From the IMG/VR virus record IMGVR_UViG_3300035682_000017, positions 1-64,000 of that record: a DNA stretch of 64,000 nt; one strand, written 5' to 3'. Source of the stretch: a virus. The notes below the pieces were generated by a model, which saw nothing but the letters and a program-made list of their open reading frames with translations, was not told where the DNA came from and searched no databases. Positions within the stretch are counted from its first letter, which is position 1. Each line of letters starts with the position of its first letter. Of the stretch, positions 1 through 61,100 are shown piece by piece. The position numbers and the translations under genes are program-made.

Positions 1-373
1 ATGATACAGATTCTTTATAGGTTTCTATTTGGTGATTTAGTGGGCTTAATAGATAGTCAGTGTATGCATTTTGATTTGCATTCTCTAATGATTTTTCTAA
101 TAGGGATATGTATTCCAAGCCTGCTTCTAGGTGACCTAATGCAAGTTCTTTTTCTTGTGTGAGTTTATCAATGTTGTAGATTGAATTGGTATCTACAGTG
201 AAATTGATAATGAATATGAATAAGCAAACAAAGAACTGAATGAAATAGTCAAAGGAGTCATATGCCTCATAGTTTATTAGACGGTCATACATTCCAAGCA
301 CATAGAGGTTTTGTGCTATGAAAATGATTAGAATGACTTGTAGGGATTTAAGGGATGATGATAAAATAGCCAT
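1..373 (-). CDS. Hypothetical membrane protein, partial (runs off the left edge)
   Basis: ATG at 373 on the minus strand; hand translation MAILSSSLNPLQVILIIFIAQNLYVLG...FIQFFVCLFIFIINF stays open to position 1; two hydrophobic stretches. Not in the ORF track. Confidence 0.6.
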   Translation of the reverse strand, partial: MAILSSSLKSLQVILIIFIAQNLYVLGMYDRLINYEAYDSFDYFIQFFVCLFIFIINFTVDTNSIYNIDKLTQEKELALGHLEAGLEYISLLEKSLENANQNAYTDYLLSPLNHQIETYKESVS

Positions 374-437
374 ATTAATTAAATTAGTTAGGGGTTTTAG
401 AGGATTGGGAAATATGATGATTTTAGGGGGTGCAGTA

Positions 438-738
438 AATACACCTGTAAATCAACACGTTACAGATAAAAAAACCCTAATGCTTCCGTGAGAATTGCAT
501 TAAGAACTAAAAACAACTATATTTTATAATCTAAATGCGCACGGTGTGTTGTCATTAAGGTTTTTTATATGTTTTTACCTGTAGTTTTTGGGTTTATATT
601 AAAAAGGTTGTTAAAACTTGTATCCACCGTGTGTAACAAGTATACTAATGCCTTATTAATCAAGCGGTTATATAACTGTGTTTTATACAATAATTAGTAC
701 AATTTGTACTTTGTAACTTATTGATTATCAGTATACAT
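438..738. repeat. Three 25-bp pseudo-palindromes, consensus TAAC-N3-TTGA-N3-TCAA-N3-GTTA
   Basis: Copies at 438-462, 646-670 and 714-738; each matches at least one half of the consensus. Confidence 0.45.
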
Positions 739-929
739 TAAAAATCAATTTTGTCAACATAGCCGTATGCTATTAAAAAAGGTACTTCACAATGCACAAC
801 TGCGCCTGTTCCATTCCATTCTACAGTGAATTGAACTTGATTATTTAGGGCAAGTAATCTAAATGCATAAAACTCTTTAGGACTTAAAGAGATGCTTGTG
901 ATGAATTCAGGGTTTTGTTTTGTTTGCAT
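738..929 (-). CDS. Small hypothetical early protein
   Basis: 63-aa ORF with a typical ATTATG start context, co-oriented with its neighbours. Confidence 0.65.
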   Translation of the reverse strand: MQTKQNPEFITSISLSPKEFYAFRLLALNNQVQFTVEWNGTGAVVHCEVPFLIAYGYVDKIDF

Positions 930-1133
930 AATGTAGGTGATGATAGTAATTAGACCATTAAAGTTACCAAGGGTTAGTAATCATACGTGAGAACGTAAGG
1001 TTACACACCCATGGGATAGTAATTAAAAAATGAGTACGTCACATTGTGGGCTTCGGATAACACCTGCAATGGGATAGTATTTTCAGGGAGTAAGGCATGC
1101 GCCAATGAACCGGAGGTTCAGTTGAGCAAGACC

Positions 1134-1171
1134 AAAAAAAGAGAGAGGGATTTCTCCCTCTCTGTTTTTTT
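1134..1171 (-). terminator. Intrinsic terminator, possibly bidirectional
   Basis: AGAGAGGGA-ttt-c-TCCCTCTCT stem flanked by A7 and T7 runs, at the stop of the 1170 gene. Confidence 0.75.
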
Positions 1172-1829
1172 ATTTAAGATGTTCAGGCATTTTCAAGCCA
1201 CGTTTTGCCAAATATTTCTCCGTCTGTGCTGAAGCAATGGATTTTGCAATCAATGCTTGCGCTTCAGGAGTCAACTCTGCTAACTCTGCCAATTCCTCTT
1301 CCTGTTCAAGGCGTTGGTTTTGCAATAATTCGCAAGCGAATTCAGCAATCCCTGCACTGAAATATTGTGTTGCTCCATATCCGTATTTGGATACTTTGTC
1401 AGACACAATTAATTCAATGCTGTCCACCTTGAATGGAAATAAAGAACCAATCTCAATGTCTTTCTTAATTGGATTAAGAAGACCATTTTGAGTGGTAATT
1501 TTATTCGCACCAAATTGGAATTGATATTGAGTTCTGATAACACCGTCAGTTTTTCTTAAAGAATATTTTAAGAATGGTAACCATACAATGTTTACAGGCT
1601 CACCTGATTCAGTCATCAGTGTTTCATATTTTAATTCCGACACCATTGGAATATCTTCTTTTTCAGAAGATTCATCAACAACCCCTTCAGAGGACATTGC
1701 GTTTTGAACTTGTTCAACAACTGTATCAATATCTTCTTTCAAAGAATTAATTGATGCTACAGTCATTGGTGGATTAATAACGTCAATGTTATTAATCAAA
1801 AATGTTCTTTTGTCTTTTAAAGTTTTCAT
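1170..1829 (-). CDS. Hypothetical early protein (about 219 aa)
   Basis: Track ORF 1170..1895; the more likely start is the ATG at 1829 (MKTLKDKR) after an AT-rich leader. Confidence 0.8.
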   Translation of the reverse strand: MKTLKDKRTFLINNIDVINPPMTVASINSLKEDIDTVVEQVQNAMSSEGVVDESSEKEDIPMVSELKYETLMTESGEPVNIVWLPFLKYSLRKTDGVIRTQYQFQFGANKITTQNGLLNPIKKDIEIGSLFPFKVDSIELIVSDKVSKYGYGATQYFSAGIAEFACELLQNQRLEQEEELAELAELTPEAQALIAKSIASAQTEKYLAKRGLKMPEHLK

Positions 1830-1920
1830 AATAAATGAATAAAAAATAAATAAAAAAATTTGGCTAATTATAATGGGATAGCCAATAAATCCCAAGACAT
1901 AAGACGCGTTAGCGAAAAAA

Positions 1921-1947
1921 TGTCCGTAAGGACACAGATTTAGAATT
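1921..1947 (-). promoter_or_regulatory. Hairpin + ATTTAG element, copy 1
   Basis: TGTCC-GTAA-GGACA-cag-ATTTAGAATT on the plus strand. Confidence 0.7.
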
Positions 1948-1968
1948 AAAGGTTGATTGAAAAACTTA

Positions 1969-2226
1969 TTAAGAGTTTAACCCCTTAACAAGTTCATATT
2001 TTAATGTTGATATGAGATTAAAACCATATAGGTCATCTCTTATAGTTCCATCTTTATGTAACATTACTTTGTTACCTTTGATGTCTTCTACATAAATCTC
2101 CTCTTCTTTCCATTTACCGTTTTGAACTTCAACCATTAAAGTTCTTAGTTCATACTCATTAAGCGTGTGACTATTAACTTTAAATGTTGGAGGTTTAATT
2201 TTGGTGAAATTTGCAATTTTTTTCAT
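1969..2226 (-). CDS. Hypothetical early protein
   Basis: 85-aa ORF tightly packed with its neighbours. Confidence 0.75.
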   Translation of the reverse strand: MKKIANFTKIKPPTFKVNSHTLNEYELRTLMVEVQNGKWKEEEIYVEDIKGNKVMLHKDGTIRDDLYGFNLISTLKYELVKGLNS

Positions 2227-2228
2227 AA

Positions 2229-2405
2229 CTAGTTTTTAGATTTTAATAACTCTTCATAGTCTAAGAGTTGTTGTTTGATACCTTCAACAACTTTCATTTG
2301 TTTGTGGTATATCTTATACCACCCTTTGGAGTAGTAATGGTCTGCTTTTGCAGACTCATTCATGCATTGTTCTAACAATGCATAAACATCTATCATTTTA
2401 TTCAT
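2229..2405 (-). CDS. Small hypothetical early protein (58 aa)
   Basis: Likely start is the ATG at 2405 (MNKMIDVY), just downstream of hairpin copy 2; the track's upstream extension crosses that element. Confidence 0.65.
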   Translation of the reverse strand: MNKMIDVYALLEQCMNESAKADHYYSKGWYKIYHKQMKVVEGIKQQLLDYEELLKSKN

Positions 2406-2418
2406 GACATAAAGTTTT

Positions 2419-2447
2419 AAAGTTCGCAAGAACTTTGATTTAGAATT
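2419..2447 (-). promoter_or_regulatory. Hairpin + ATTTAG element, copy 2
   Basis: AAAGTTC-GCAA-GAACTTT-g-ATTTAGAATT. Confidence 0.75.
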
Positions 2448-2551
2448 GAAGATTGAGTTGGAAGATTGTGTGGCTGATTGTATTGATTGTGGATGATGAT
2501 AGTAACAGGCGGCCACGCCTTTGTTACCACACACCCAACACACCACTGTTA

Positions 2552-2580
2552 AATTACCGTAAGGTAATTCATTTAGGATT
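2552..2580 (-). promoter_or_regulatory. Hairpin + ATTTAG element, copy 3
   Basis: AATTACC-GTAA-GGTAATT-c-ATTTAGGATT. Confidence 0.7.
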
Positions 2581-2636
2581 AAAGGTTATTCAATAGCCCA
2601 AGCCACACATCTCTGTGCAGCCTGGAACTTAATGTC

Positions 2637-2873
2637 TTATTGTGTGTATCTTTCATTGAACATTGCCTGTGTGACATCTTGAGGTTCTACATCCTCATTG
2701 AATGCCACCTCAACAACGAACTCTTCGTTGTCAGGGTTTTGTATACTGTCTTCCCATTTGACAGTAATAGTTTGTTCCTGTGGCACTATACCACAAGAAC
2801 ATAATATATACAATGCAGTTATAACTAGTATTGTATACAGGTAGAATTTACCTACACTTGCTTGTCTTTTCAT
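2637..2873 (-). CDS. Putative small lipoprotein
   Basis: From the ATG at 2873: MKRQASVGKFYLYTILVITALYILCSC, i.e. basic N-terminus, hydrophobic core and lipobox-like LCS|C, then an acidic body. Confidence 0.65.
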   Translation of the reverse strand: MKRQASVGKFYLYTILVITALYILCSCGIVPQEQTITVKWEDSIQNPDNEEFVVEVAFNEDVEPQDVTQAMFNERYTQ

Positions 2874-2884
2874 AATAATAATTT

Positions 2885-3091
2885 TTACTTTATAACTATT
2901 GGGAACTCTGAACAGAACTCTACCGTAGGATAGTATCCGTAATCGTTGCACAATAAAATGTGTTGTGCAATTTGAGGGTCATTCATACCCTCAATTGTAG
3001 TAAACACAGAGCAGTTGTGATTCTCCATGTTGTGTTGGTTATCCCATAACCACATTCCACCCTTATAGATGGATAATATTGAATTCTTCAT
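2885..3091 (-). CDS. Small hypothetical early protein
   Basis: Likely start is the ATG at 3091 (MKNSILSIY) with ATTATG context. Confidence 0.65.
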   Translation of the reverse strand: MKNSILSIYKGGMWLWDNQHNMENHNCSVFTTIEGMNDPQIAQHILLCNDYGYYPTVEFCSEFPIVIK

Positions 3092-3148
3092 AATAATAAG
3101 TTTAAAATGCAGGGTGAGGTACACCACCCTGCTAAGTGTTTAGTCCTA

Positions 3149-3430
3149 TTAAATATTTACTATACTAATAGGTGAGATTATTAAGGCATGTCTATATGAA
3201 TATGAAGCACTTGTTGCTGCTTCAGCAGGAACTGCTTTATATTTAAATATCCAATTGCCTACTTCATCTTTGAAGAATGAAGCACCACAAATATCTCTTT
3301 CTATGCTGTCATTTGCAGCATATTTTTTCTCAACTATTTCTTTTAGTTGAGAAGTATAATCCCATCTCTTTTCATCATAAGAGTAAGGATTAAATTCAAA
3401 TGCAATGCATTCATTAATTAAATTTATCAT
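3149..3430 (-). CDS. Hypothetical early protein
   Basis: 93-aa ORF with ATTATG start context. Confidence 0.7.
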   Translation of the reverse strand: MINLINECIAFEFNPYSYDEKRWDYTSQLKEIVEKKYAANDSIERDICGASFFKDEVGNWIFKYKAVPAEAATSASYSYRHALIISPISIVNI

Positions 3431-3458
3431 AATAAATAATTTAAAAGATTAAATAAAA

Positions 3459-3506
3459 ACAACCGTAGTTAACATGCTCCTCACATCTTGTTTTAACTAC
3501 GGTTGT
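3459..3506. other. Intergenic 14-bp inverted repeat (RNA hairpin)
   Basis: ACAACCGTAGTTAA...TTAACTACGGTTGT between two minus-strand genes; terminator or processing stem. Confidence 0.6.
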
Positions 3507-3516
3507 GTACATTGAC

Positions 3517-3741
3517 TTATGACAATTTCTTAGTGCATAAATCAGACAGCAGAGCATCAGCTCTCTTGTCAATCTCCTTACCTATTAGCGCAGAGATTTT
3601 CTTGTAAGCCTTCTTTTCTACAACGCATTCCGTTGCAGTTCCAAAGGCTTTCTTGTCAACCTCCTTGTCAAAGGAAGTTAACTCTTCATTTGTCATATTC
3701 TCTAAGAATATGACAATCTTGTCTGTGTCTTGTGTGCTCAT
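3517..3741 (-). CDS. Small hypothetical early protein
   Basis: 74-aa ORF starting about 15 nt downstream of hairpin copy 4. Confidence 0.75.
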   Translation of the reverse strand: MSTQDTDKIVIFLENMTNEELTSFDKEVDKKAFGTATECVVEKKAYKKISALIGKEIDKRADALLSDLCTKKLS

Positions 3742-3756
3742 GATAATTAGTTTTAA

Positions 3757-3783
3757 AAGTTCGTAAGAACTTACATTTAGAAT
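3757..3783 (-). promoter_or_regulatory. Hairpin + ATTTAG element, copy 4
   Basis: AAGTTC-GTAA-GAACTT-ac-ATTTAGAAT. Confidence 0.75.
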
Positions 3784-3824
3784 AATGTAAGTAAGCAGTT
3801 TATACTCTTGCTTAGGAGTGGGGA

Positions 3825-4046
3825 TTATGTTAGGGAGTCGTCTGTTATTTGGAGCATTTCCAAATAATATTCTTCATCCCTTTCTAATTCTCTAAATTTG
3901 AATTCATAATTAATGAATGCTATCTCTGCCAAATCTTCGGCAGTAAGCATTGCATCATCCCCATGGAATTCTTGGTAATCCATAAATTCCATTTCAAGGA
4001 GCACAGCATTGTACTCCATGAATTCTGTTCTAGTCATCATAATCAT
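3825..4046 (-). CDS. Highly acidic small protein
   Basis: 73 aa with about 20 D/E and 4 K/R; first gene of the minus-strand block. Confidence 0.75.
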   Translation of the reverse strand: MIMMTRTEFMEYNAVLLEMEFMDYQEFHGDDAMLTAEDLAEIAFINYEFKFRELERDEEYYLEMLQITDDSLT

Positions 4047-4059
4047 AATAATTAATTTA

Positions 4060-4086
4060 AAGTTCGTAAGAACTTATATTTAGAAT
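4060..4086 (-). promoter_or_regulatory. Hairpin + ATTTAG element, copy 5
   Basis: AAGTTC-GTAA-GAACTT-at-ATTTAGAAT. Confidence 0.75.
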
Positions 4087-4421
4087 CAGACCTTGGCTAG
4101 TGTCACAACTCTAACCTACCACACAAACCTTCTTCCCTCTGCCTCTGCATGTGGAACACATGCCTTGCACTGTACAGATAAAACATTCTCCCTGGAGAAT
4201 TTTTCTTGCCATCAGACCATGAGATTATTCTCTATAGTGCTACTGACCAGGGGGTAACCCCTGATGCTGTCTAGGCCTGGGGCTTCCGCAAGGAAGGACT
4301 AACCCACACAATTATATCCCCAAAATTCAATTTACCCAAGATCCTAAATAAGAATAAGTGAGTTCCCCCATTAAAATCCTCTGAAACCCTTGGTATCACT
4401 GGGATATAGACCTATGGGGGT

Positions 4422-4511
4422 AACTTCCCAAAAGGGAAGCCTGCAGTGCTTTAAACTTCCCTTTTAGGCAGTTTTAAAAAAAATTAAATAAAACTTCCTT
4501 TTTGGGAAACT
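4422..4511. repeat. Three operator/iteron-like pseudo-palindromes AACTTCCY-W4-RGGMAR
   Basis: AACTTCCCAAAAGGGAAG (4422), AACTTCCCTTTTAGGCAGTT (4454), AACTTCCTTTTTGGGAAACT (4492). Confidence 0.65.
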
Positions 4512-4516
4512 TTTGT

Positions 4517-4524
4517 TATTTTTG
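4517..4524 (+). promoter_or_regulatory. Bacteroidota -7 promoter element (TAnnTTTG)
   Basis: TATTTTTG 15 nt upstream of the ATG at 4540. Confidence 0.55.
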
Positions 4525-4539
4525 TGGAAAGAAATTATA

Positions 4540-5049
4540 ATGGCTGGAGTAAAAAAAGTAAATAGGGCTGTAGATTTGGATTTAGATAGTTACGTTGATG
4601 ATGAAACTGGGGAGGTAAGGTTACTTGCTGAAATACCCCGGGGGGTTAAAGTGACACAAGAGTCTGGGATGGTAGTTGTGGATTCAGATAACTATGCAGT
4701 TCTTGAAACAGATGCTATGCTTGCTCTTATGAAGGTTTTAAATAATAGTGATTTGTGTAATGTTTTAAAGATGAGTGTTGCTACAAAGACCGCATTGAAT
4801 ATTGTTTTTAATAATAATATACCACATACAAATGATACGCTGCAAAAGTATTTAGAGATTGGATCCCAAAGTAAATTCATATCTCTTATTAAGAGGTTGA
4901 TTTCTGCTGGGGTGTTGTATCAGATTAAGGGTAAGATTTATGGAGAGGTTAGGGTTTGTTATATGTTGAATCCATTTCTTTCTAGGAAGAGAAGGTTGTT
5001 TGAGGCTAAAGTGTTTGATGTATTTGAAAAGTTTAAGTTAGAGCCATGA
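4540..5049 (+). CDS. RepL-like winged-helix DNA-binding protein
   Basis: ATG at 4540; YVDDETGEV N-terminal motif, HTH-like segment (LQKYLEIGSQSKFISLIKRLISAGVL) and C-terminal YMLNP motif typical of RepL-type proteins. Confidence 0.6.
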   Translation: MAGVKKVNRAVDLDLDSYVDDETGEVRLLAEIPRGVKVTQESGMVVVDSDNYAVLETDAMLALMKVLNNSDLCNVLKMSVATKTALNIVFNNNIPHTNDTLQKYLEIGSQSKFISLIKRLISAGVLYQIKGKIYGEVRVCYMLNPFLSRKRRLFEAKVFDVFEKFKLEP

Positions 5050-5174
5050 GAATATTGTTACTGTTAGTATTTTTGTCTGCGTGTGCACCAATATCAGAAT
5101 TGGAATATAAGAGAAAACAGATGCATAAGCAAGATAAAAAAATGTTTAAGCAAATTAAAAGAAGTAGAAGATGA
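5046..5174 (+). CDS. Small basic lipoprotein (42 aa)
   Basis: MRILLLLVFLSA|CAPISELEYKRKQ...; lipobox LSAC; ATGA overlaps with both neighbours. Below the track cut-off. Confidence 0.6.
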   Translation: MRILLLLVFLSACAPISELEYKRKQMHKQDKKMFKQIKRSRR

Positions 5175-5347
5175 GTGAGGAAATAAAAAGACAGATTGAA
5201 GAGTATAGAGATTTACTCACTGGTGATATATTTGCTGATGGTGAAATTCAACAAAAGATTTATGAGTTGAAGAAGCAGCTTAATCCTAGAATTGAATTGC
5301 ATCCGGAAGAGGATGATGATGACGAATGTTTAAATTGTGGATCATGA
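5171..5347 (+). CDS. 58-aa protein ending in an RNR-alpha-like CxxC tail
   Basis: MSEEIKRQIEEYRDLLTGDIFADGEIQQKIYELKKQLNPRIELHPEEDDDDECLNCGS*; ATGA-coupled on both sides. Confidence 0.75.
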   Translation: MSEEIKRQIEEYRDLLTGDIFADGEIQQKIYELKKQLNPRIELHPEEDDDDECLNCGS

Positions 5348-5586
5348 GAACTATTGAGGTGTTAAAGAATCAATGTAAGGTTAGACTTTTTGTAGGTACA
5401 TTTTGCATTGGGGTAGAATTGAATCAGTTCTTTCCAAAATTTGTTGATGTAGTTATAGGTGAACTGGTTGTTAAAAGATACAAGGATCCTGGTTTGTACA
5501 TGATTGATAAGATTAATTTCCAAAAGGAAAATGCATTTAGTAAACAAAAATTGAACTATGAAAGCCGAGCAAGAAAAAGATTTTAG
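5344..5586 (+). CDS. Hypothetical protein
   Basis: ATG at 5344 (MRTIEVLK) overlaps the previous stop. Confidence 0.6.
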   Translation: MRTIEVLKNQCKVRLFVGTFCIGVELNQFFPKFVDVVIGELVVKRYKDPGLYMIDKINFQKENAFSKQKLNYESRARKRF

Positions 5587-5737
5587 GGATAAGTCAGTTA
5601 TAGATGTAAACCCAAGTCCTTTATATATTGGTGGAGTAGATTCTTATGATGAAGAATATGGATATGGATGTTTATTCATGATGATAATAATGATAATGCT
5701 AATAATAATTTGCGGATATGTGGCTATTCAAAGGTAA
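5558..5737 (+). CDS. Small membrane protein (59 aa)
   Basis: MKAEQEKDFR...GCLFMMIIMIMLIIICGYVAIQR*; fills the gap between genes; C-terminal hydrophobic helix. Confidence 0.55.
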   Translation: MKAEQEKDFRDKSVIDVNPSPLYIGGVDSYDEEYGYGCLFMMIIMIMLIIICGYVAIQR

Positions 5738-6134
5738 AGAGTTTAAAGAATTGGATATTCCAGAAAATGGTTTTGGATTCATCTATGAAATGTCTGCTAT
5801 AGTGGATGGGAAATCTGTTCGGTATATTGGAAAAAAGAATTTCTATGCAGATGTTAAAACCAATTTGGCTAAGAAAAATATGCCAACGGATAAAAGGTTA
5901 AAAACTTATACCAGAAAACGTAAGTTCACGTATCAAAATTATTACAGCAGTAATTTAGTATTAAAAGCTGCACATAAAGAAGGTGTTATTATCAAACGTG
6001 AGATACTTGCAATCTGTTTTAGTAAAACGGAATTGTCGTATACGGAATGTAAATACCAATTTAGCTATGGGGTATTAGAATCAGATGAATTCTTGAATGG
6101 AAACATTCTTGGTAAATTCTATAAATTCAAATAG
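5718..6134 (+). CDS. GIY-YIG family endonuclease
   Basis: GFIY...YIGKK motif, conserved Glu (SYTECKYQ) and Asn (FLNGNI). Confidence 0.75.
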   Translation: MWLFKGKEFKELDIPENGFGFIYEMSAIVDGKSVRYIGKKNFYADVKTNLAKKNMPTDKRLKTYTRKRKFTYQNYYSSNLVLKAAHKEGVIIKREILAICFSKTELSYTECKYQFSYGVLESDEFLNGNILGKFYKFK

Positions 6135-6208
6135 CTATGTGGGTAGAAATGCATAATGAGTGGGATATTGAACACTGTGAAACTCGTAACCAACTAAAAA
6201 TAAATAAA

Positions 6209-6604
6209 ATGAGATCAACAACAGAAATTAAAGAAGAAGCAGAAAGCAAGTATTATGAAACACCAGCTAAAAAATGTGAACCTCAACATACAGAAAGAGG
6301 AATTGAGAACCCATTATTGCAAGATATGGCGGATACATTTACTGCGTGTTATGAAACGGCAACAAGAAAGAATCATGATTATGGAGGAAGTAATAATGAT
6401 CCTTATGCAAACTTCAGAAATTCTACCATTGCTGGTGTATCAGTAGAACGTGGAATTTTGGTAAGGTTGATGGATAAAATGTCACGCATTTCTACTCTGC
6501 TTGACAAGGAAGCAATGGTAAAAGATGAAGCAGTAGATGATACTATCGATGATGCAATCAATTACTTAGCAATTTTAAAGTCTTACCGTAAAAACAACAA
6601 GTAA
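6209..6604 (+). CDS. DUF1599 / nucleotide-modification-associated domain 1 protein
   Basis: RKNHDYG...NF...VRLMDKMSRI...DTIDDAINYLAI; start may be 6137 or 6209. Confidence 0.75.
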   Translation: MRSTTEIKEEAESKYYETPAKKCEPQHTERGIENPLLQDMADTFTACYETATRKNHDYGGSNNDPYANFRNSTIAGVSVERGILVRLMDKMSRISTLLDKEAMVKDEAVDDTIDDAINYLAILKSYRKNNK

Positions 6605-6891
6605 TGGAAAATCTAACATTTGGACAAGCTCTTGAAGCCTTAAAAGGTGGTAAAAAAGTAGCAAGAAAAGGATGGAATGGTACAGGTATGTTTGCTGTAT
6701 TATCACCTGGTAAAAAACAATTAGAAGCAGAAGGTTTCTTTAACCCTGATTTAAAAGCACATGCTTTAACAATTGGTGGATTTATGGATGTGCGCCCTGC
6801 ATTCATGTTAAAAACAGCTCAAGATGATGTAGCATATTGGGTTCCTTCAGGTAGTGATTGTTTGGCAGAAGATTGGTTAATTGTAGAGTAA
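6604..6891 (+). CDS. DUF2829 / Tad2-like anti-Thoeris sponge protein
   Basis: [26 protein letters not shown]...[13 protein letters not shown], the family signature. Confidence 0.8.
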
Positions 6892-6892
6892 T

Positions 6893-7513
6893 ATGGGAAA
6901 GTTTGTTAAGAAACCGGTAATCATTGAAGCAGTACAATGGACAGGAGAAAATAAGTTAGAAATTTCTGAATTTGTTCAAGACTCTGAAAGAAGATATGAC
7001 TTCAAAGGAGATGCTTTATTCATTCATACTCTTGAGGGATCTATGCGTGCAAGCAAAGGTGATTACATTATCAAAGGAATTGAGGGTGAATTTTATCCTT
7101 GTAAGCCGGAAATCTTTGAGAAGACTTATGCGAATGAAAATGAAATTGGTAATTTATCTGATGGATACCATACATACAATGAGTTATACAATTTCAGAAA
7201 AATGTATAATGCTGCATTGTTTAATGAGTGGGGTAAAGATAGAGTGCAACATCCTCATTGGTGGAAAGAAGGAAGACCTTTCTATTCATACAAGTATGAT
7301 GTGCATAAATCCAAAAGACATCATAATGGTGAGTTATGTTTTGGTGGTGGTTGGTTCGTGGTTAGTGCTACGCTTCCTACAGGTCAAATTACTAATCATT
7401 ATGAAATGAAAGATTGGGATTTATTCCAAATACCAGAAGAACCAAAAGCAATGTATGAGTTTGATGGTCACACCGGAGAAGATGTATTAGAAAGATTAAA
7501 AGTTTTAAATTAA
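6893..7513 (+). CDS. Two-domain fusion: PGDYG-like N-domain + WDGH-like C-domain
   Basis: N: [11 protein letters not shown]...TLEG...[23 protein letters not shown]: [11 protein letters not shown]...HKSKRHHNG...GQITNHY...FDGHT. Confidence 0.7.
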
Positions 7514-7518
7514 GCATA

Positions 7519-7602
7519 ATGGGTAAAACAGGTAACAAAGCAAAAATAGAAGCACTCAAGGGATGGCTTTTAAGTTTAGTAACAATTAAAAAAGGTAAGT
7601 AA
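7519..7602 (+). CDS. 27-aa basic micro-protein
   Basis: MGKTGNKAKIEALKGWLLSLVTIKKGK*; TAATG coupling to the next gene. Confidence 0.45.
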   Translation: MGKTGNKAKIEALKGWLLSLVTIKKGK

Positions 7603-7856
7603 TGGAAGAAATCACAACAGAAAGAAAATTGTCCTTTGGTGAACAATTGGTAGGATTGAATTTCAATCCATCCGCAGATGACAAAGTAGCACAAGCTAAA
7701 GCATTGTTTGCAAAAGCAGCAGATCTTCTTGAAGAAGAATATCGCGCTAAAAATTTAGCAGCTAACCCAATGCATACAATGATGTATGAAAATGCAATCG
7801 GTGAAGTATTGAATGCACAAATGAACACAGTAAAAATATTAACCCTTAATTATTAA
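7602..7856 (+). CDS. Acb2/Tad1-like helical hairpin protein (putative)
   Basis: FGEQLVGLNFNPS..DKV..K...A...AQM.TVK pattern; all-helical, 84 aa. Confidence 0.55.
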   Translation: MEEITTERKLSFGEQLVGLNFNPSADDKVAQAKALFAKAADLLEEEYRAKNLAANPMHTMMYENAIGEVLNAQMNTVKILTLNY

Positions 7857-7859
7857 ATT

Positions 7860-8141
7860 ATGAAATTTTTAGGTAAAGTGGTTGTTTTAGAGAAACCACA
7901 CATTGAAAGCAAACCATCTGGAATTGAATTAGGACCAGAAGCAAAACAACAACTTGAAGACAGCATTGTTAAAAAGTTTAGTAAACTTAAAGTGTATGGA
8001 GTTGGTGAAATGGTAGAAAGAATTAAAACTGCAGACTTTGTTTTAGTTACTCCAAAATCTCTTTCTTATGCTGATACATTTGAAATTGATAATGTCATTT
8101 ACTATATTGTTCCAGAAAATCAAGTTGTGGCAATACATTAA
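7860..8141 (+). CDS. GroES/Cpn10-like co-chaperonin
   Basis: SGIEL mobile loop, VYGVG..V..IK..D.V, and C-terminal IDNVIYYIVPENQVVAI; 93 aa. Confidence 0.7.
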   Translation: MKFLGKVVVLEKPHIESKPSGIELGPEAKQQLEDSIVKKFSKLKVYGVGEMVERIKTADFVLVTPKSLSYADTFEIDNVIYYIVPENQVVAIH

Positions 8142-8161
8142 ACTAAAATTTTATTAATTTT

Positions 8162-8189
8162 AACCCTTACTAACCAGTAAGGGTTTTTT
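8162..8189 (+). terminator. Intrinsic terminator
   Basis: AACCCTTACT-aacc-AGTAAGGGTT followed by a T run. Confidence 0.85.
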
Positions 8190-8207
8190 ATTTTCAATTA
8201 TTTTTTG

Positions 8208-8214
8208 TATATTA
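8208..8214 (+). promoter_or_regulatory. Putative late promoter element TATATTA
   Basis: The same heptamer precedes operon starts at 19873, 26297, 29212, 40169 and 47234. Confidence 0.55.
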
Positions 8215-8234
8215 TAGTATAAAGCTGAATTATT

Positions 8235-8480
8235 ATGACACACGCGGAATATGAACATAGAGTATTAAGTTTGTTAGGGAAACAAACTTCCAGGTTGTTA
8301 GAGATGCAAAATTTACCAGGATATGTTAGAGAATTTACGTATTCAGGATCAACCTCAAATATTATTGAGATAAAACATTATTCTACAAGTGATAATTTAA
8401 TTGCTCCAGTTGTTGAAACAATTGAATATCAAAATGCAACAGTTGAAGGATCAAGAGTTACTAAAATTACAATTTCTTAA
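8235..8480 (+). CDS. Hypothetical virion-associated protein
   Basis: 81-aa ORF heading the fibre/lysis operon. Confidence 0.7.
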   Translation: MTHAEYEHRVLSLLGKQTSRLLEMQNLPGYVREFTYSGSTSNIIEIKHYSTSDNLIAPVVETIEYQNATVEGSRVTKITIS

Positions 8481-8482
8481 TT

Positions 8483-10246
8483 ATGCCTTATAAATTAAAT
8501 CCCATAACTGGTAAGTTAGATTACTACGAAGCACCAGGTTCTGGCAGTGGTGCAAATTTAGCTTACACTGCATCTCCAACAACTGGTGTGGTTGTTTCTG
8601 ATTCAGGAACTGATGCTACTATTCCGTTAGCTTCTTCTGTAAATGCAGGTTTATTTTCACCAGCTGAAAAAACTAAACTTGCTATTGCTCTTGTTGAAGA
8701 AGGTATTAATTATAGAGGGGATTATGATAATGGTGCTTCTTATGGTTATGAACAGGTAGTAAGTATTCCGGCAGGAAGTCCTTACGGATTACCTGGACAA
8801 TTATTTATAAGAGTATCTAATCCTAATAACCCTGGGTATCCTCCAGGAACATCATCTTGGGAACTTTATGATATTTATACTGGTTCACCTGCTTTTGATG
8901 CTTGGGTTAGAAGTGTTTTAGGAACTAAAGTTACTGTAGAAGAGGGTAAAGGTTTATCAACTGAAGATTATACTACAGTAGAACAAACAAAACTTGCAGG
9001 TATTGCTGTAGGTGCTGAAGTAAATGTTAATCCAGATTGGAATGCAACTACAGGAGATGCAGAGATACTAAACAAACCATCAAGTCTTCCTACAGCAAAT
9101 GTTAAACACTCTGTAAAATATGCAGAAGCCTTAACTATTGGACAAGCTGTTTATGTAAGTGGTACTAGTGGAACTAACATGCTTGTTTCTAAAGCAAGTA
9201 ATACTTCAGAAGCCACTTCATCAAAAACATTAGGATTAGTTACTGTATCAGGTGCAGCTAATTATCAAGGAGAAGTTATTACAGAAGGTTTATTAGCTGG
9301 ATTAAATACTTCTACAGCTACTGATGGGGATGCTGTATGGCTTGGAACTGATGGTAATCTAATTTTCTGGCATTATGGTTTAACAACTAAACCAGTTGCA
9401 CCTGCTCATCTTGTATTCATTGGTGTTGTAACAAGAGTAAGTGCTACAGTTGGAGAAATTTTTGTAAAACCACAAAATGGATTTGAGATTGATGAACTTC
9501 ATGATGTTCTTATCACAAATCCTGCAAATGATGAAGTAATAGCTTTTGATTTAGCTACAGGTTTATGGAAAAATAAAACAATTGCTGGAGGAAGTGGAGA
9601 AAAATCGGGATCTATATTATCTACAGCAAGAAGTTTACCATTTAGAATGGGAACTAATATAACTACTTATCGTTCAGCTTCTGGTGTAGGTAGTACAGTA
9701 GTTTCTTCTACTACATTTGCTGGTGAGTCAACTCATTACTTTCCTATATCTCTTAAAGAAGGTTCTCCTGTAAACGCAGCTGCATTTAGAGTAAATTCAG
9801 CAGGATCTGGAGGGCTTGGTACAGCAGAAATAGAAGTTGGTATTTATAATTCAACAACAAATGCAAATGGAGAATTAATACCTGGAACACTAGAAGTTCA
9901 ATTTGGTAAAGTTTCTGTATTATCAACTGGTGTTAAAGAAGCTGTTTTAGCTAGTCCTTACACACTAGGATCAACAGTAGATAATATTTATTTTATTGCT
10001 TTTAGAAGTTATTCTACCAACTCTACATCATTAAATATTTATTCTACAAGTGATGTTCTTTCATCTTGGATTGGTATATCATCTTCATCAGCTCTTGTTA
10101 AACTAGGCATGTTTATAGCAACTACTCCATATACTGCGCCAACAGGATTACCTGCAAGTTTACCGGTTACAGGCGGTGTAGGTTTTACACAAAGTGCAAC
10201 TGTAGCTGGTTATACAGTTAACCAATTATTAATAGGACTTAGATAA
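8483..10246 (+). CDS. Fibre / receptor-binding-like structural protein
   Basis: MPYKLNPITGKLD anchor, GKGLSTEDYT...DWNATTGDAEILNKP fibre repeat, G/S/T-rich beta domains. Confidence 0.7.
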   Translation: MPYKLNPITGKLDYYEAPGSGSGANLAYTASPTTGVVVSDSGTDATIPLASSVNAGLFSPAEKTKLAIALVEEGINYRGDYDNGASYGYEQVVSIPAGSPYGLPGQLFIRVSNPNNPGYPPGTSSWELYDIYTGSPAFDAWVRSVLGTKVTVEEGKGLSTEDYTTVEQTKLAGIAVGAEVNVNPDWNATTGDAEILNKPSSLPTANVKHSVKYAEALTIGQAVYVSGTSGTNMLVSKASNTSEATSSKTLGLVTVSGAANYQGEVITEGLLAGLNTSTATDGDAVWLGTDGNLIFWHYGLTTKPVAPAHLVFIGVVTRVSATVGEIFVKPQNGFEIDELHDVLITNPANDEVIAFDLATGLWKNKTIAGGSGEKSGSILSTARSLPFRMGTNITTYRSASGVGSTVVSSTTFAGESTHYFPISLKEGSPVNAAAFRVNSAGSGGLGTAEIEVGIYNSTTNANGELIPGTLEVQFGKVSVLSTGVKEAVLASPYTLGSTVDNIYFIAFRSYSTNSTSLNIYSTSDVLSSWIGISSSSALVKLGMFIATTPYTAPTGLPASLPVTGGVGFTQSATVAGYTVNQLLIGLR

Positions 10247-42257: not shown

Positions 42258-45200
42258 ATGGCAAAGAAAAAAACAGCATCTGCATCAAGCAGCACATTTA
42301 AGTCTACTGCTACTTTTGATAAAGCAATGGTAACGGATGTAAATGATTATCATTTACCGGAAAACGCATGGACCTATGCACGTAATGCAATTAACAATTC
42401 AAGAAAGGGTGACATTGGTAAGTTATCTAATGAACCTGGTAATCAATTTTGTACTACTGCTCCATTTAATATAATTGGTTCAATACATATTGAAAAAGAT
42501 ATTTGGGCTGTATTTTCAACAAACAATTATCTATCAGAGATTGGTTTATTTGTTGAAGGTGAATGTTCATATACAAAACTTGTAAGAAGTACGTGTCTGC
42601 GCTTTAAAACAACAAACTTGATCATTGGAGTAGCTAAACCAAATGCATTTTGTAGTCATGAATTATTTTGGGATGATGGTATTAACCCTACTAGGTATAT
42701 TGACATAAATAAAATTCCATGGCTTGAAACATGTGAAGATGTAGATGGATGTAAAATCTGTGAACCAACTTTGGATTCTAATGATGAAAAAATTCTTGAT
42801 TGTGAACAATTAAGATTAGAATCTATTTATAAAACTCCAACTGCAGTTGTTAAAAAAGGAGTTGGTATTGGAACATTAAACAATGGTACATATCATGTTC
42901 ACACGGCTTATTATGTAAATGAACAAAGAGTAACTGACTATACTACAATGTCAAATACAATTTCTTTATTTACACATGATAATGTTAATGGAAGTATTGA
43001 TGTAGATATTAAAAATTTAGATACTAATATCTTTGATGACTACGAGTTAGTATTGGTATACACTGTAGCAGAGAAGACTGTTGCTAGGCATATTGGTATG
43101 TATAGTACTGGTGTAACTAAAGTTTCTATTGATAATATAAATTTAGAATCTGGAGTTATTGATTCAAAACTTTTAGGTTACATTACACCTGTTCCAGATA
43201 AATCAAAAGGAGTTTATTCTACAGGTAAATATTTATTGCGTGTAAGTCCAACTGATAAATTTCAGTTTAACTACCAGCCATTGGCAAATCAAATTAGAAC
43301 TTTTTGGCAGTCTGTAGAATATCCAAAAGATTATTATAAAAATGGAGGCATTAATGTTGGTCACATGCGTGATGAAGTTTATACTTATTTCATACGTTGG
43401 ATTTATAACACTGGTGATAAAACTCCTTCTTTTCATATTCCAGGTAGAGGTCCTGTTGATTATGTTTTAACAAATGATGATGGTTCTAAAGGTTCCACTT
43501 TAAAAGAAAATGATCCCCTTCCGTCTTCATTTGAAAAGAATGTAATTGAGGATTATACTCCTAAAGTGTTTGAAGTATTCAATACAGCTTACTTTACTAA
43601 ATCTCCTAACACTCTTTTAGATGACGGTGGTGTTGTTATCCATGAAGGAAGAATGGGATACTATGAAAGTTTAGAATTATATCCAGATAACAATCCTCAA
43701 GTTTGGAATGCTAGTTCACATCTATGGTCTGATTCTGGTGATGATAATCATGACTTGTGTGGTAAACCAATCCGTCACCATAAATTCCCTGAAAATTCTT
43801 TAAACTATTCAGGACTGTATTCTGATATTACTAATCACTATAATAAAACTGGTGATAAGATTAGAGTAATGGGAGTTAGGTTTGAAAACATTAAACCTCC
43901 AAAAGATAACAAGGGAAAAGTTATTAAGAACATTGTTGGTTATGAAATCTTACGTGGTAGTCGTGATGGAAACAGAAGTGTTCTTTACAAAGGTTTAATA
44001 AATAACATGTTTGAATATGATCTTCCTTCTAAAATTACAAGTAGAAAAGGATTGTATGCAAACTATCCTTTTAATGATTTAAGACCAGATCCATTTATTT
44101 CAAAAAAGAAAACTAACTATGATACAGCAGGTGGTTTAAAAAATCTTGTACCAAATACAGCTTACAGTAAAAAACATTTTACTTTTAATTCTCCAGATGT
44201 ATCTTTTGGTAGACCTTTTTTAAATGCTAATGAGTTAAAGATTTATGGTATTGCTCATGGTATTTCTTCTGGTAAATATGCAGAAGCTAGTGATCACCCT
44301 AAACATAAATTTTATACAGATTTAGCTTTAGGTGTTGCTTTAATTGCTGGTGTTGGATATGCTATGGCTAAACAATTTGGTAAAAAGGTAAATACATATA
44401 CTGGATGGCAAAAAAATTCTACTGCTTTACCTTGGAATGTTACTGGTACAACTGTAGCATTTACTGGAGGTACTGCTATTGGATATTTACCTAATCCTAA
44501 ACCTACAGCTGCAGCTGCTGCTTTAGCTGCAGCAGATACTGTTAAAAATAATGCACTTAAAGGTTTAGGTATTCTTGATATATTTACTGGTACTAATACA
44601 AAAGAATTAGCACAAAAGGCTTATATTAAATCTACAGCTAGTGCTGCTGTAATGGGTTCGATGTATAGTTCTGCATCAAAGAATGAAGGATTTGATAATG
44701 TAGATCAAACTCCAACTGCATTAAGAATGATGCAAGCAATTCCAATGTTCTTAACTAACATGCAAGATGGTGCTAATAGTACTTTGGAATTAATAAAAGC
44801 AGTTTCTCCTTACAATCAATTTGCTCATCAGTTTATTTCTAAATGTGAGTATGAAGAATATCAAGCTCCTAGTGCTAATAATAGAAGAAGAAAGATTGAT
44901 GATAGTAGATATACTACATCGCAGATGCAAGACTTTCAAAGTACTCACATAATTAATAATTTGTATAGACCAACTGGCGTTGTGTTTAATACATTTAAAA
45001 ATGTTGAGAATACTGCAATTGCAGATGTATCGCGACCTGATAGATTATCTCAAATGGCTGACAATGATAAGTTTGAGTTTCAAAGAAGACGTGCTGCTTC
45101 TCACTACGTTGCATTTAAAAATCCGGATAGAAGACAATATGGTCAGTTAGATTCTATTAAAATGATTCCTACCAAAAGTGAATATGTTGAAATTGATTTA

Positions 45201-58183: not shown

Positions 58184-61100
58184 ATGGCAAATGAAATAAA
58201 TCCAGGTAAACCTAAAAAAAAAGTTGACTCTTCTGAATTAGCAGACAAACAAGCATCTATAGCAACCGGTAAAGAACTTGGAAAATTAAGAGAGGGTAAT
58301 TTTAAAAATGCTATGCAAGGTGGTCAAGTAAGTGCTACTAAAGTTGGTGTTGATAGATTTATTACTTACGGAAGTAAGACTTTTGGAAAATTAGGATTTG
58401 ATCCAAATAGAGATAATGCTGAATTTTATAACAACCGAACTTCTACTAGTGATGAAATGTGGAGAAGTGTTAAAGGTGCTTGGAATTTAGCAGGTGTTGG
58501 TTTTCAAGATAGTATTTTTCTAGGTGCAGTTTCTGATAAAAATTCTTCTCAAAAGTTTTCAGACATCATGGCTGATTACCAAGTTGATGAAAGAAGAGGT
58601 AACACTGCATTTTGGGGAAACACTATTACTTCTGCTGGATATACTGCTGGTATTATTGGAGCTATTGCTATTGAAGAAATTGGATTAGGTATTGCTACTG
58701 GAGGTTTAGGATTACTTGGTTCTGGTGGTATTATTGGAAGAGGTGTAGATAATATCTTTACAGGTTTAGGTAAAAGTAAACTTGCTAAAGTTGCTGGTGG
58801 TGGTAGAACTCATATTGAAATGATGGAAGGCCTTGCTGAAGTTGAAAGAGCAAGAGAAGCTTATGACAGTTATAGCAAGTTAAAAAAAGTTGGACTTAGT
58901 TTAGGTGAGTTTGGTAAAGACATTGCAAAAGGTTTAAATCCTATTGGTAATACTGCTGGGTTTTTAAAAGACCTAGAAAAAATGAATGATGTTAACGGCT
59001 TTGTTAAAATGGCAAATGGAGCTGGAGCTTTATACAGAGATGCTAGAAAGTTTACTATGACTCATAGTGAATCTAAACTAGAAGCTGAAATGAACTCAAA
59101 AGAATTTTTTAATAAAGAACTTGATGCACTATATAAAAAGAATCCTGGTGCAGAAATATCCGAATTAGATCTTGAAGATTTAAAATCTAAAACTCAAAAT
59201 GTTTTTGAAAAAACTTACAACGCCAACTTTGCTTTAATCTATGCAACAACTGCAATTGCTTTTGATAATGTTTTCCGTAACTTAAAGTTTAATCAGAATT
59301 GGTTAAAATCTGCAGAAGCTGGTAAAAACTCTATGAGAAATATAGGTAAGTCTTCGGCTGAATTTGTAACAGAAAACTTAGGAATTAATTTATCAAGAGG
59401 TTTAAAAAATTATGCTAAACGTACATTTTCTATTGGAGGATTAACTAGAGCCACTTTAGGAAATATTGCAGAAGGTTACCAGGAATTACAACAAGATGGT
59501 ATTTCAACTAGTGCTGTTAGTTTTGCTAAAAGAAGTAAGGTAACAAAACAAACTGAAGGTAACTATTTTACAAATCTATACAATGAGTTAGCAGACAATT
59601 TTGATTTTGTTGCTAATGGATTAGAGTATAAATTTATTCCTAAAACAGGAAGAGAATTAAGTACGTTTTTATCTGGTGCTTTTATGGGTGTAATTGCTTC
59701 TCCAGTTTCTATGGTTACGCAAGGTGCTCAAAAACTCACACTAGGAAAAGGATACAAATCTTTTTCTAAATCTTACAGAGAAGAACAAGCTAAATCAAAT
59801 AGTAAAAATCAAGCAATTGCTAAAGTTCTTAACATGACCTTTAGAGAAAATCTTGATAAAGCTTACGATGTAGTTAACAAGCCTTTATTTACACAGATAG
59901 AACTTCAAGAAAAAATTCTTGAGGCTGTTGAAAAAGGAGATACAAAAGCATTAGAAGATTTAAAAGATGCTACTTTTGCTGTGCAAGCAAACATGTTGTT
60001 AGAAACAAATGCAGATGAGGATTTTGCTGAACATTTAGATCAAGCTGCTTCAAAACTTAATGATTCAGAATTAGCAGAATTTTTAGGAAGAACTAACATT
60101 GATGCAGAGAACTCTTCTAAAGTGCGTAAGGTTTTAAAAGATAAGGCAACTACTCTTAAAAAATTAAGAGCTGTTAAAAATGAAATTGATGCTAATGTAG
60201 TTTCTCCAATTAATCCAAATCTTTTAAATAAGAAGGATCCAGAGTATGCTCAAAAATATCACACATACCAGGCGTTTCAATCATTGAAAAAAGAGTTGTT
60301 ATATTCTCATGCTGCTATTTTGCAAAATGTAAATAGAACAGAAGGAATTAGAAGTAAACTTTTAGATAACTCAAAAAATATAAATTTTAGTTCATTTGAA
60401 GTAGAAGCGTTATTAAGTAGTGCTGATTTAAAATCACAAGTTGAGTTATTAAAAACTGAAATAGAATCAGTTAAATCTATTGGTTCTAGTAGACCTGAAT
60501 CTAAAAAAGAATTAGAAGTTTTAGAAAAAAAACTTGTGGCTTATACAGAGTATCAAAAAGCATATGAGAAATTAAAAACAACTAAGGATTCAAATTCGGA
60601 AGAATATGCAGATAGTGTAGATGCTGTACAAGAAGCTTTTCAAAATGTTGCTAAAGCATATAATGAAAGAACTACAAATAGATTCTTAGAAGTTGAAGGT
60701 ATGTCTACAGACATTGTTGATTACTTAACTTTAGGTGAAGAAAGAGATGCTTTACAACAACATGTAAACCTTTTAACAAATAAAGATTACGCTTTCAATT
60801 TTATTACAGAAGCTGAAAAACAAAATAAAAAAGCTTTAGCAAATCTTCAAAATCATATTGAAGATTCATTAAATGAATTTGATAAAAGAAAAGCTGCTAA
60901 TACCATGATGAAAATATTATCTGAAAAAGGAATAATATTTGACATGAATGAAATTGATGACTTATTTGAAAAAGGAATAATGCCATCAAAAATTTATGAT
61001 ATAGCAAAAAATAGTTTTGCTAATTCAAAACAAGTAGCAGAAGCACAAACCATTATTAGTTCTATTTATAAAAACCTTACAGGTAAAAGTATTTTAAATG

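Follow-up and report, generated by a model that had tools for sequence, protein, structure and literature searches.

What function is served by five copies of a short hairpin joined to a conserved box, all clustered within 2.2 kb of an 81.7-kb phage record, is the question raised by the IMG/VR virus record IMGVR_UViG_3300035682_000017. The record (G000) is linear, with 81,703 bp and a CheckV completeness of 68%, and its first 64 kb are the stretch analysed here, hereafter the window. At least half of the sampled words of the record are present in 15 lake or freshwater metagenome runs, and the phage is an uncultured, distant crAss-like phage of lakes. In an initial annotation the elements had been proposed to act as early promoters for a virion RNA polymerase (RNAP), an interpretation that is partly supported by the present analysis. 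The reading to which we incline, tentatively and at slightly less than an even chance, is that the elements are phage-specific early promoters, each composed of box, hairpin and spacer, that head the replication (early) arm of the genome. Judged from sequence, they probably serve an injected polymerase of the type of gp66 of the crAss-like phage phi14:2, and both the assignment to a virion RNAP and the action of the hairpin at the level of DNA are plausible. The five elements are listed below, with the hairpins written as on the plus strand, which is the template strand.

1921 to 1946, minus strand: element 1, hairpin at 1921-1934 (TGTCC-GTAA-GGACA), 3 nt, then the box at 1938-1946 (ATTTAGAAT)
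2419 to 2446, minus strand: element 2, hairpin at 2419-2436 (AAAGTTC-GCAA-GAACTTT), 1 nt, then the box at 2438-2446 (ATTTAGAAT)
2552 to 2579, minus strand: element 3, hairpin at 2552-2569 (AATTACC-GTAA-GGTAATT), 1 nt, then the box at 2571-2579 (ATTTAGGAT); in gene sense ATCCTAAAT
3757 to 3783, minus strand: element 4, hairpin at 3757-3772 (AAGTTC-GTAA-GAACTT), 2 nt, then the box at 3775-3783 (ATTTAGAAT)
4060 to 4086, minus strand: element 5, hairpin at 4060-4075 (AAGTTC-GTAA-GAACTT), 2 nt, then the box at 4078-4086 (ATTTAGAAT); in gene sense ATTCTAAAT

In the sense of the genes, in which element 5 comes first, each copy reads as the box ATYCTAAAT, 1-3 nt, one arm of a 5-7 bp stem, a 4-nt loop (TTAC in four copies and TTGC in one, corresponding to GTAA and GCAA on the plus strand), the second arm and T/A-rich sequence. 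The positions given in the initial annotation proved exact and the five copies are the only ones in the whole record: the pattern CGYAAG-N7-ATTTAG was found five times in forward and never in reverse orientation, and a backwards control gave 0 and 0. ATTTAG begins exactly 8 nt past the loop in all five, as had been described. When the box was required without mismatch at the fixed spacing from a hairpin of at least 5 bp, five matches were obtained, whereas 100 shuffles averaged 0.14 and never exceeded 1; one or two mismatches in the box added 11 matches, which are regarded as noise since 11.1 are expected by chance. All copies are intergenic and each lies upstream of minus-strand open reading frames (ORFs), three of them near a start codon as first noted, with the base of the hairpin 13 nt from ATG 2405 (element 2, 58-aa ORF), 15 nt from ATG 3741 (element 4, 74 aa) and 13 nt from ATG 4046 (element 5, 73 aa). 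Element 1 is followed by a 91-nt leader and by ATG 1829 of a 219-aa ORF, and element 3 by an ORF-free stretch of about 105 nt that extends to the box of element 2, the distance from copy to copy being 133 nt. The hairpin of element 1 precedes T6 in gene sense and is the sole copy that scores as terminator-like.

The elements were compared with those of a relative, the IMG/VR record G001 (120,528 bp, rated complete), which was found through an alignment of homologues of the 219-aa protein. Seven such homologues are available, with 42-95% identity, six of them (42-49%) on Logan or ENA contigs. Between the window phage and G001 the identity is 84% for the portal, 72% for a 169-aa protein encoded beside a divergent non-coding region and 46% for the 219-aa protein. 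A metagenome scan yielded two short contigs, L128, from a strain variant (91% protein identity), and L129, which is without the upstream part. G001 carries four elements (a to d), in the same place and orientation as in the window and within 1.5 kb; their box is ATTCTAWAY, their stems are AATGACC, AATTACC (twice) and AACTACC, and their gene-sense loops TCTC, TTT, TTC and TTC. The structure-plus-sequence composition claimed for the window copies is found again there, with box, covarying hairpin and the same fixed 8 nt between box and loop, and shuffled G001 sequences gave 0.10 box-plus-hairpin matches per genome against the 4 real ones. L128 carries elements 2 and 1, and the loop of element 2 has changed from TTGC to TTAC in gene sense (GTAA on the plus strand). 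Nine elements, five from the window and four from G001, are compared below, and the L128 copies of elements 2 and 1 bring the aligned rows to 11. The conserved block is contiguous, about 18 nt long (yAAyCTTya-ATTCTAWAY), and abuts the hairpin. Element 5 is the positional orthologue of G001 element a; the upstream flank CAAGGTCT is common to both, and three of the six stem pairs are altered on both sides.

That the stems differ with pairing kept had been noted from the window copies and is borne out by the 11 aligned copies, in which 74 of 77 cells pair and four of the seven pairs change on both sides (18 cells). None of 500 shuffles reached the real percentage paired, number of double-change cells or covariation score, and controls in which the partners were slid attained at most 50.6% paired; these figures overstate independence, since the copies are paralogous and were aligned by fitting to the model. 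A covariance model was trained on eight tetraloop copies with the three triloop copies of G001 held out, and it recovered the latter at 33.6, 30.2 and 22.3 bits, the next best score in the 246,703 bases searched being 18.4 bits.

Evidence on the strand that folds comes from the loops. The extraordinarily stable DNA mini-hairpins have been described as GCGNAGC and GCGNNAGC, with a stability that depends on the closing pair (PMC13037366, PMC3201870), and in the promoter hairpins of phage N4 stability is reported to come from a sheared G:A pair together with a closing C:G pair, both on the template strand (PMC4496689). A stable C-GNNA-G loop on the template strand had been proposed for the window. 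On that strand the loops of the nine copies are GTAA (four times), GCAA, GAGA, GAA (twice) and AAA, which places G(N)NA in eight of nine, and the closing C:G pair is present in all 11 rows. C-G(N)NA-G hairpins with a stem of at least 5 bp were also counted on both strands of the two genomes: G000 has nine on the plus strand (seven of them within 1106-4283) and none on the minus strand, and G001 has none on the plus strand and seven on the minus strand (six within 60792-63083), against 3.2 and 3.9 per genome, strands combined, in shuffles. All 16 are thus on the template strand of the replication arm, 13 of them in the two arm heads. Four of these 13 are without a box, two in G001 (61600 and 61702) and two in the window:

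1106 to 1120, plus strand: box-less mini-hairpin, TGAACC-GGA-GGTTCA on the template strand, just past the terminator of the 219-aa gene; orthologue in G001 and in L129
4283 to 4296, plus strand: box-less mini-hairpin upstream of element 5, within the divergent non-coding region; on the template strand CTTCC-GCAA-GGAAG

The loops of the box-less hairpins (GGA, GCAA, GTA and GATA) obey the DNA rule, not the RNA GNRA rule. Moreover, nearest-neighbour DNA energies are better for the template than for the sense strand in all nine copies, by 0.1-0.7 kcal/mol, and G-U pairs are absent from the five inner pairs, the sixth pair being G-U in gene sense in 2 of the 11 rows. Polarity, energies and pairing together favour a predicted DNA hairpin on the template strand.

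The elements occupy the head of the replication arm, that is, its first 1.5 kb in G001 and its first 2.2 kb in the window, where the arm is cut at position 1. In G001 this arm extends over about 42 kb in the sense of the elements, with small ORFs followed by genes for a DNA polymerase, a DnaB-like helicase, a primase, a further helicase and an exonuclease, and the opposite arm carries head, tail and cargo genes. For phi14:2, the report on its polymerase describes an early class comprising the whole replicative module, transcribed by gp66 and largely rifampicin-resistant, shows that gp66 transcribes denatured DNA, and mentions two long non-coding stretches near the arm head that are strongly transcribed early (10.1101/2020.03.07.982082). 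Stretches without ORF follow five of the nine elements compared here. The elements behave as 5' signals, not as 3' signals: the distance to the downstream ATG is near-constant in four of nine copies (13, 15, 13 and 15 nt), and that to the upstream stop codon ranges from 22 to 57 nt. In addition, the box of element 1 is immediately preceded by a strong terminator in L128, and the extended box of G001 element d by a terminator (GTGTC...GACAC, then TATTTTTT) that ends 14 nt ahead of it, so that the next transcription unit must start at or after the element. In the window there are two further structures of the terminator type, the second of which was read from the sequence, as its loop of more than 8 nt left it out of the terminator scan:

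1142 to 1163, both strands: bidirectional intrinsic terminator with a 9-bp G+C-rich stem and T runs on each strand, ending the unit of the 219-aa gene
3451 to 3504, minus strand: terminator-like 12-bp hairpin (3461-3472 with 3493-3504), then GTTTTTATTT in gene sense, about 20 nt before ATG 3430

The primary sigma factor of Bacteroidota recognises TAnnTTTG about 7 nt upstream of the start, together with TTTG near -33. The elements had been claimed to be unlike this host signal, and none of the nine contains TAnnTTTG; that part of the claim stands. Use of TAnnTTTG by the host could not be confirmed, and the motif, with or without TTTG, is not enriched in either genome: the two strands carry 75 and 60 copies in G000 (shuffle mean 56) and 78 and 90 copies in G001 (shuffle mean 88). 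Sigma-70-like sites in positions 1-9000 number 34, against a shuffle mean of 40.6, and none overlaps an element.

Several other identities were tried and rejected. Only one of the five elements (element 1) qualifies as an intrinsic terminator, the real terminators of the cluster being G+C-rich with T runs; an operator of a dimeric DNA-binding protein was dismissed on account of three different stems within one genome; no Rfam family matched positions 1-6000 at E <=1; and a universal crAss-like signal was discarded as none of 51 hairpins in phi14:2 is of this type.

The point at which RNA would begin was approached through conservation downstream of the hairpins, where the similarity between orthologues resumes 5-8 nt past the hairpin. 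One such case is the following:

1898 to 1914, minus strand: leader block CGCTAACGCGTCTTATG (gene sense), which begins 6 nt past the hairpin of element 1 and is nearly invariant in G001

This block is near-invariant despite the downstream protein being only 46% identical. Similarly, CGCTA(A)CGCGTCTTATG follows both element 1 and G001 element d, and CAGTG follows element 3 and G001 element b. Contigs of an RNA-library run (X20) were also aligned; the run is available as contigs only, comes from a strain 90-95% alike and may contain DNA. A 594-nt contig spans 1320-1827 and 86 letters past a masked repeat, which places its end at about 1913, 7-8 nt past the hairpin of element 1, a position that is deduced from the 86 unaligned letters, and contig ends are not transcript ends. 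As a pointer to a start site where the conserved leader begins, this end is a weak hint. Parts of 1-2004 and a few stretches beyond are represented among the X20 contigs, and 2339-5344 is not at all, a gap that is uninformative because the strain is 90-95% alike and the region hypervariable.

With regard to the enzyme, the initial annotation had found no polymerase gene identifiable in the window, and the candidate does lie beyond it, as a 4109-aa ORF at 64599-76928 of the record with GGDYDIDK at residue 2289. Since the segment ending at the DYDID motif matches phi14:2 g066 ("Catalytic RNA polymerase subunit") at E 1e-6, the phage is considered to encode a gp66-type virion RNAP; the same segment matches 88 crAss-like records in all. 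The candidate (L006 6599-18925) also has a C-terminal 2OG-Fe(II) oxygenase domain of the AlkB type at residues 3715-3871 (Pfam E 1.4e-10). The large terminase and the portal match crAss PHROGs, and a terminase search returned 128 phage records, mostly crAss-like, with identity below 60% in all. A 1646-aa ORF (42258-47198) matches the Crassvirus muzzle family PF25731 and is followed downstream by a chain of giant ORFs of 1538, 738, 619, 718, 2137 and 4109 aa, then of at least 1592 aa.

If the elements are early promoters of this phage, each would consist of a gene-sense box of about 18 nt (yAAyCTTya-ATTCTAWAY), a directly downstream 5-7 bp inverted repeat whose template arm folds into a C-G(N)NA-G DNA mini-hairpin, and a short T/A-rich spacer. 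Negative supercoiling after injection would extrude the A+T-rich hairpin and thereby offer a single-stranded entry point to a polymerase unable to open duplex DNA, such as a gp66-type virion RNAP, with sequence specificity coming from the box. RNA would start about 5-8 nt downstream of the hairpin, which would yield very short leaders for three small ORFan genes, the 91-nt leader of the 219-aa gene and one non-coding RNA. A wider proposal, that the two-barrel crAss RNAP has converged with N4 on supercoil-extruded template mini-hairpins with an upstream box of 9-18 nt, lineage-specific and with the start 5-8 nt past the hairpin, is possible and somewhat more doubtful than the promoter function itself.

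A number of observations weigh against these early promoters. N4 has no counterpart to a box placed upstream of the hairpin and outside it; one of the nine template loops (AAA) departs from the G..A rule, and the hairpins are weak as DNA, at -3.5 to -6.1 kcal/mol by nearest-neighbour calculation. The covariation comes from two lineages and one strain variant with paralogous copies, and two of the five covariation measures, those counting pairs and pair types, are not above shuffles (reached by 370 and 426 of 500). Three ORFs (3430 to 2637) are without element and stand behind terminator-like hairpins. In the first 9 kb of phi14:2 none of the 51 short hairpins, on either strand, is of the C-G..A-G type, and in that phage, the only crAss-like one whose early 5' ends have been mapped, these ends were found to share no upstream motif (10.1101/2020.03.07.982082); a lineage-specific signal would explain this missing motif. 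There is, finally, a second motif, TTACTATCATCA, which occurs in exact sense copies five times in G001 (plus strand, 61639, 63240, 67199, 71976 and 99246) and twice in the window:

2494 to 2505, minus strand: second motif TTACTATCATCA (gene sense), inside the ORF-free stretch after element 3
938 to 949, minus strand: second motif TTACTATCATCA (gene sense), 8 nt ahead of ATG 929

Most of its copies are 8-46 nt before ATGs and are spread along the whole 42-kb replication arm, and the motif could be a second promoter class, the main early promoter or a shared leader motif.

Other explanations place the function of the hairpin elsewhere. The box by itself may form a contiguous promoter of the phage type, recognised either by the virion RNAP or by a host RNAP in modified form, with the hairpin acting as RNA; transcription would then start at or just before the hairpin, and the 5' stem-loop would guard against 5'-end-dependent decay and be followed by an A/U-rich ribosome landing site of 13-15 nt. 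Transcripts of T7 phi10 have this arrangement of a promoter and then a 5' stem-loop, and the succession of box, hairpin, 13-15 nt and ATG in four of the nine copies conforms to it. An RNA stem is equally compatible with the covariation, the two rows with a G-U sixth pair in gene sense speak for RNA, and it would be nothing unusual for an RNA contig to stop about 20 nt short of a start at that point. The loops, however, argue otherwise, as the sense-strand sequences UUAC, UUGC, UCUC, UUC and UUU are not known to belong to any class of stable RNA loops and three of the nine copies have only 3 nt, whereas the G..A polarity and C:G closure are found on the opposite strand in eight of nine copies and in the four box-less hairpins nearby. 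Orthologue conservation, moreover, resumes only 5-8 nt past the hairpin. On balance an RNA hairpin behind a box-only promoter is unlikely, while retaining some weight.

A role in RNA processing, which the initial annotation had named as its alternative, or in antitermination would make the elements sites within longer transcripts, at which a nut-like factor cuts early RNA or allows read-through of terminators. Box, short spacer and 5-7 bp hairpin do resemble nut, and read-through would suit the terminator-like hairpins inside the cluster, where the ORF at 3430 has no space for a promoter ahead of it; nevertheless, two elements stand directly behind strong terminators, nothing else conserved being present there from which the following unit could start, and no host-type promoter is found upstream of element 5 to feed a long transcript. 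As five copies are present in 2.2 kb, each positioned relative to the downstream ATG, and as the loop polarity indicates the opposite strand, such a role appears improbable. A non-transcriptional function at the level of DNA, either as recombination joints of gene cassettes, similar to the promoter-early stem-loops (PeSLs) of T4-type phages, or as single-strand priming signals beside the origin-like region at 4090-4540, is harder still to credit and seems very improbable. Mini-hairpins were first described at a phage origin, and here they are all on one strand beside repeated iteron-like boxes. Cassette exchange is visible in the 85-aa gene that is swapped in L128 between flanks 89-95% identical, and in a DNA run with a replacement (1964-1972) and a joint (3506 to 3738). 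Yet the breakpoints of the swap are at ORF ends and not within elements, the fixed 13-15 nt to the ATG and the conserved box are left unexplained, and the shuffling may be a by-product of repeated promoters, as is described for PeSLs (PMC2839356). Early promoters with a template-strand DNA hairpin remain the tentative choice.

None of ten ORFs neighbouring the elements matches PHROGs at E <=0.01 and none reaches a Pfam cut-off. Two ORFs bear on the arrangement of the cluster:

1170 to 1829, minus strand: 219-aa ORF behind element 1, without family match
1969 to 2226, minus strand: 85-aa ORFan cassette between elements 2 and 1, replaced in L128 by an unrelated gene

The 219-aa ORF has the highest depth among the RNA-library contigs aligned to 1-10000. 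The model of its product is poor (mean pLDDT 57.3) and shows a small beta-barrel at residues 67-135, for which the best Foldseek matches, none of them better than E 0.0096, are to chains of PriB and SSB, together with other OB-fold nucleic-acid binders; the best VIA Z-score is 4.9, under the level that the tool regards as meaningful. The OB-like barrel is thus a lead only, and an early single-strand binder, if the protein were one, would suit a hairpin-promoter mechanism. It is unrelated to phi14:2 g004. With respect to the 85-aa cassette, the breakpoints of the L128 swap lie outside the elements, and the replacement seen in the DNA run at 1964-1972 has 219 letters.

Three non-coding regions deserve mention. 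The divergent non-coding region beside the conserved 169-aa gene (window 4090-4540; L008 7930-8040; L152 6190-6400) carries short repeated boxes, namely GTGCTAAAAATAACAC in 3-4 copies with 32-nt spacing in the relative and palindromic boxes similar to ACTTCC...GGAAG in the window, and CCTAAATAAGAATAAG is common to three lineages; by its boxes, the region resembles an origin of the iteron type accompanied by the gene for its initiator. Past the terminator of the 219-aa gene, a conserved non-coding stretch (window 930-1130, minus strand; L008 10700-10900; L129 830-1040) contains repeated ATTACTATCCCAT / ATTACCGTTCCCAT boxes and is spanned by an RNA-library contig covering 912-1188; it may be an early non-coding RNA like those of phi14:2. 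In G001, about 420 nt without ORF (61752-62178; L008 9404-9830) begin at element c, end at an intrinsic terminator immediately ahead of element d and are a candidate for a long early non-coding RNA.

Searches for the signal in further phages led back to G001. Neither the exact stem-plus-box pattern nor the 219-aa protein alone as query had a match in viral_contigs. The extended box AACCTTTMATTCTAWAY was found in at least 119 stretches and, among the matches listed, only the G001 record has correctly spaced hairpins, the rest being due to chance; the leader block returned 13 stretches, genuine only in G001, and the flank of the first element nine, of which only that of G001 is genuine, the other eight scoring 19-23 bits from the box alone, without hairpin. 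No relatives were found in genome_contigs, and a portal-based search gave one 12.9-kb contig that ends short of the element region and one distant record. At three loci (L150-L152) whose homologue of the 169-aa protein is 50% identical, the layout differs and is co-directional; C/G-closed hairpins of 6 bp or more are absent from the sense strand there, and the covariance model finds no match at E <=10. Literature searches returned no description of a signal of this kind in crAss-like phages.

Few phages known are as abundant as the Crassvirales, and yet the promoters used by their injected RNAP have so far not been defined, the authors of the phi14:2 work having found no motif common to the sequences upstream of early transcripts. 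A compact signal of about 40 nt would be a direct experimental handle on the start of transcription by the injected enzyme. If the signal works with a polymerase of the gp66 type, two families of virion polymerases that are not related would have converged on hairpin promoters, and the early transcription units of uncultured crAss-like phages would become annotatable. If only the box matters, the elements would still represent a new class of phage-specific promoters, joined to 5' stem-loop cassettes between which ORFan genes can be swapped.

Among the known systems to which the elements can be compared, the nut site of phage lambda consists of boxA and the boxB hairpin, acts as RNA and occurs once per early operon, downstream of the promoter, where it is bound by a protein of the N type. 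Similarly to nut, the elements join a short conserved box, after a few bases, to a 5-7 bp hairpin that covaries among relatives; unlike it, they number four to five, immediately precede a gene or a non-coding unit in every case and in some cases follow directly on a terminator, and the purine-rich loop is on the wrong strand for gene-sense RNA. The PeSLs are repeated units of promoter and stem-loop that flank small ORFan genes in a hyperplastic early region, with cassettes swapped among close strains (PMC2839356), as the 85-aa gene is here. The PeSL promoter, however, has a sigma-70 consensus, whereas the box described here matches neither sigma-70 nor TAnnTTTG, and the PeSL stem-loops are G/C-rich terminators that attenuate transcription from upstream (PMC2839356), whereas the present ones are A+T-rich, lie downstream of the box and are followed by a T run in one of five copies. 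With the stable DNA mini-hairpins GCGNAGC and GCGNNAGC, eight of the nine template-strand copies share the G(N)NA loop and the 5'C:G3' closure (PMC13037366, PMC3201870); the second pair, in contrast, is C:G or T:A and not G:C, and the stems are longer and A+T-rich.

The comparison that bears most directly on the early promoters proposed here is with N4, whose promoters P1-P3 are read by the injected, T7-like virion RNAP gp50 (PMC4496689, PMC13434306). Transcription from a promoter of the N4 type starts at a fixed distance downstream of the hairpin and depends on supercoiling and SSB. Both systems have few copies clustered at the head of the region expressed first, a short inverted repeat (5-7 bp in the present elements) whose stem varies freely while pairing is kept, and a template loop closed by C:G with a sheared G:A pair, a fold that is predicted from sequence in our case. 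In both, the virion carries a polymerase that uses single-stranded and not duplex DNA, which for the crAss type was shown with phi14:2 gp66. The two polymerases are nevertheless unrelated, gp50 being T7-like and the present candidate of the two-barrel gp66 type, a contrast drawn with no search aimed at gp50 homologues. N4 has a conserved G+C-rich heptamer centred in the hairpin and common to all its promoters, whereas the stems described here are A+T-rich and variable, with only C-loop-G in common, and the loops have 3 nt in N4 against 4 nt in the window and 3-4 nt in G001. Here, unlike in N4, the conserved sequence is a box of 9-18 nt upstream of the hairpin.

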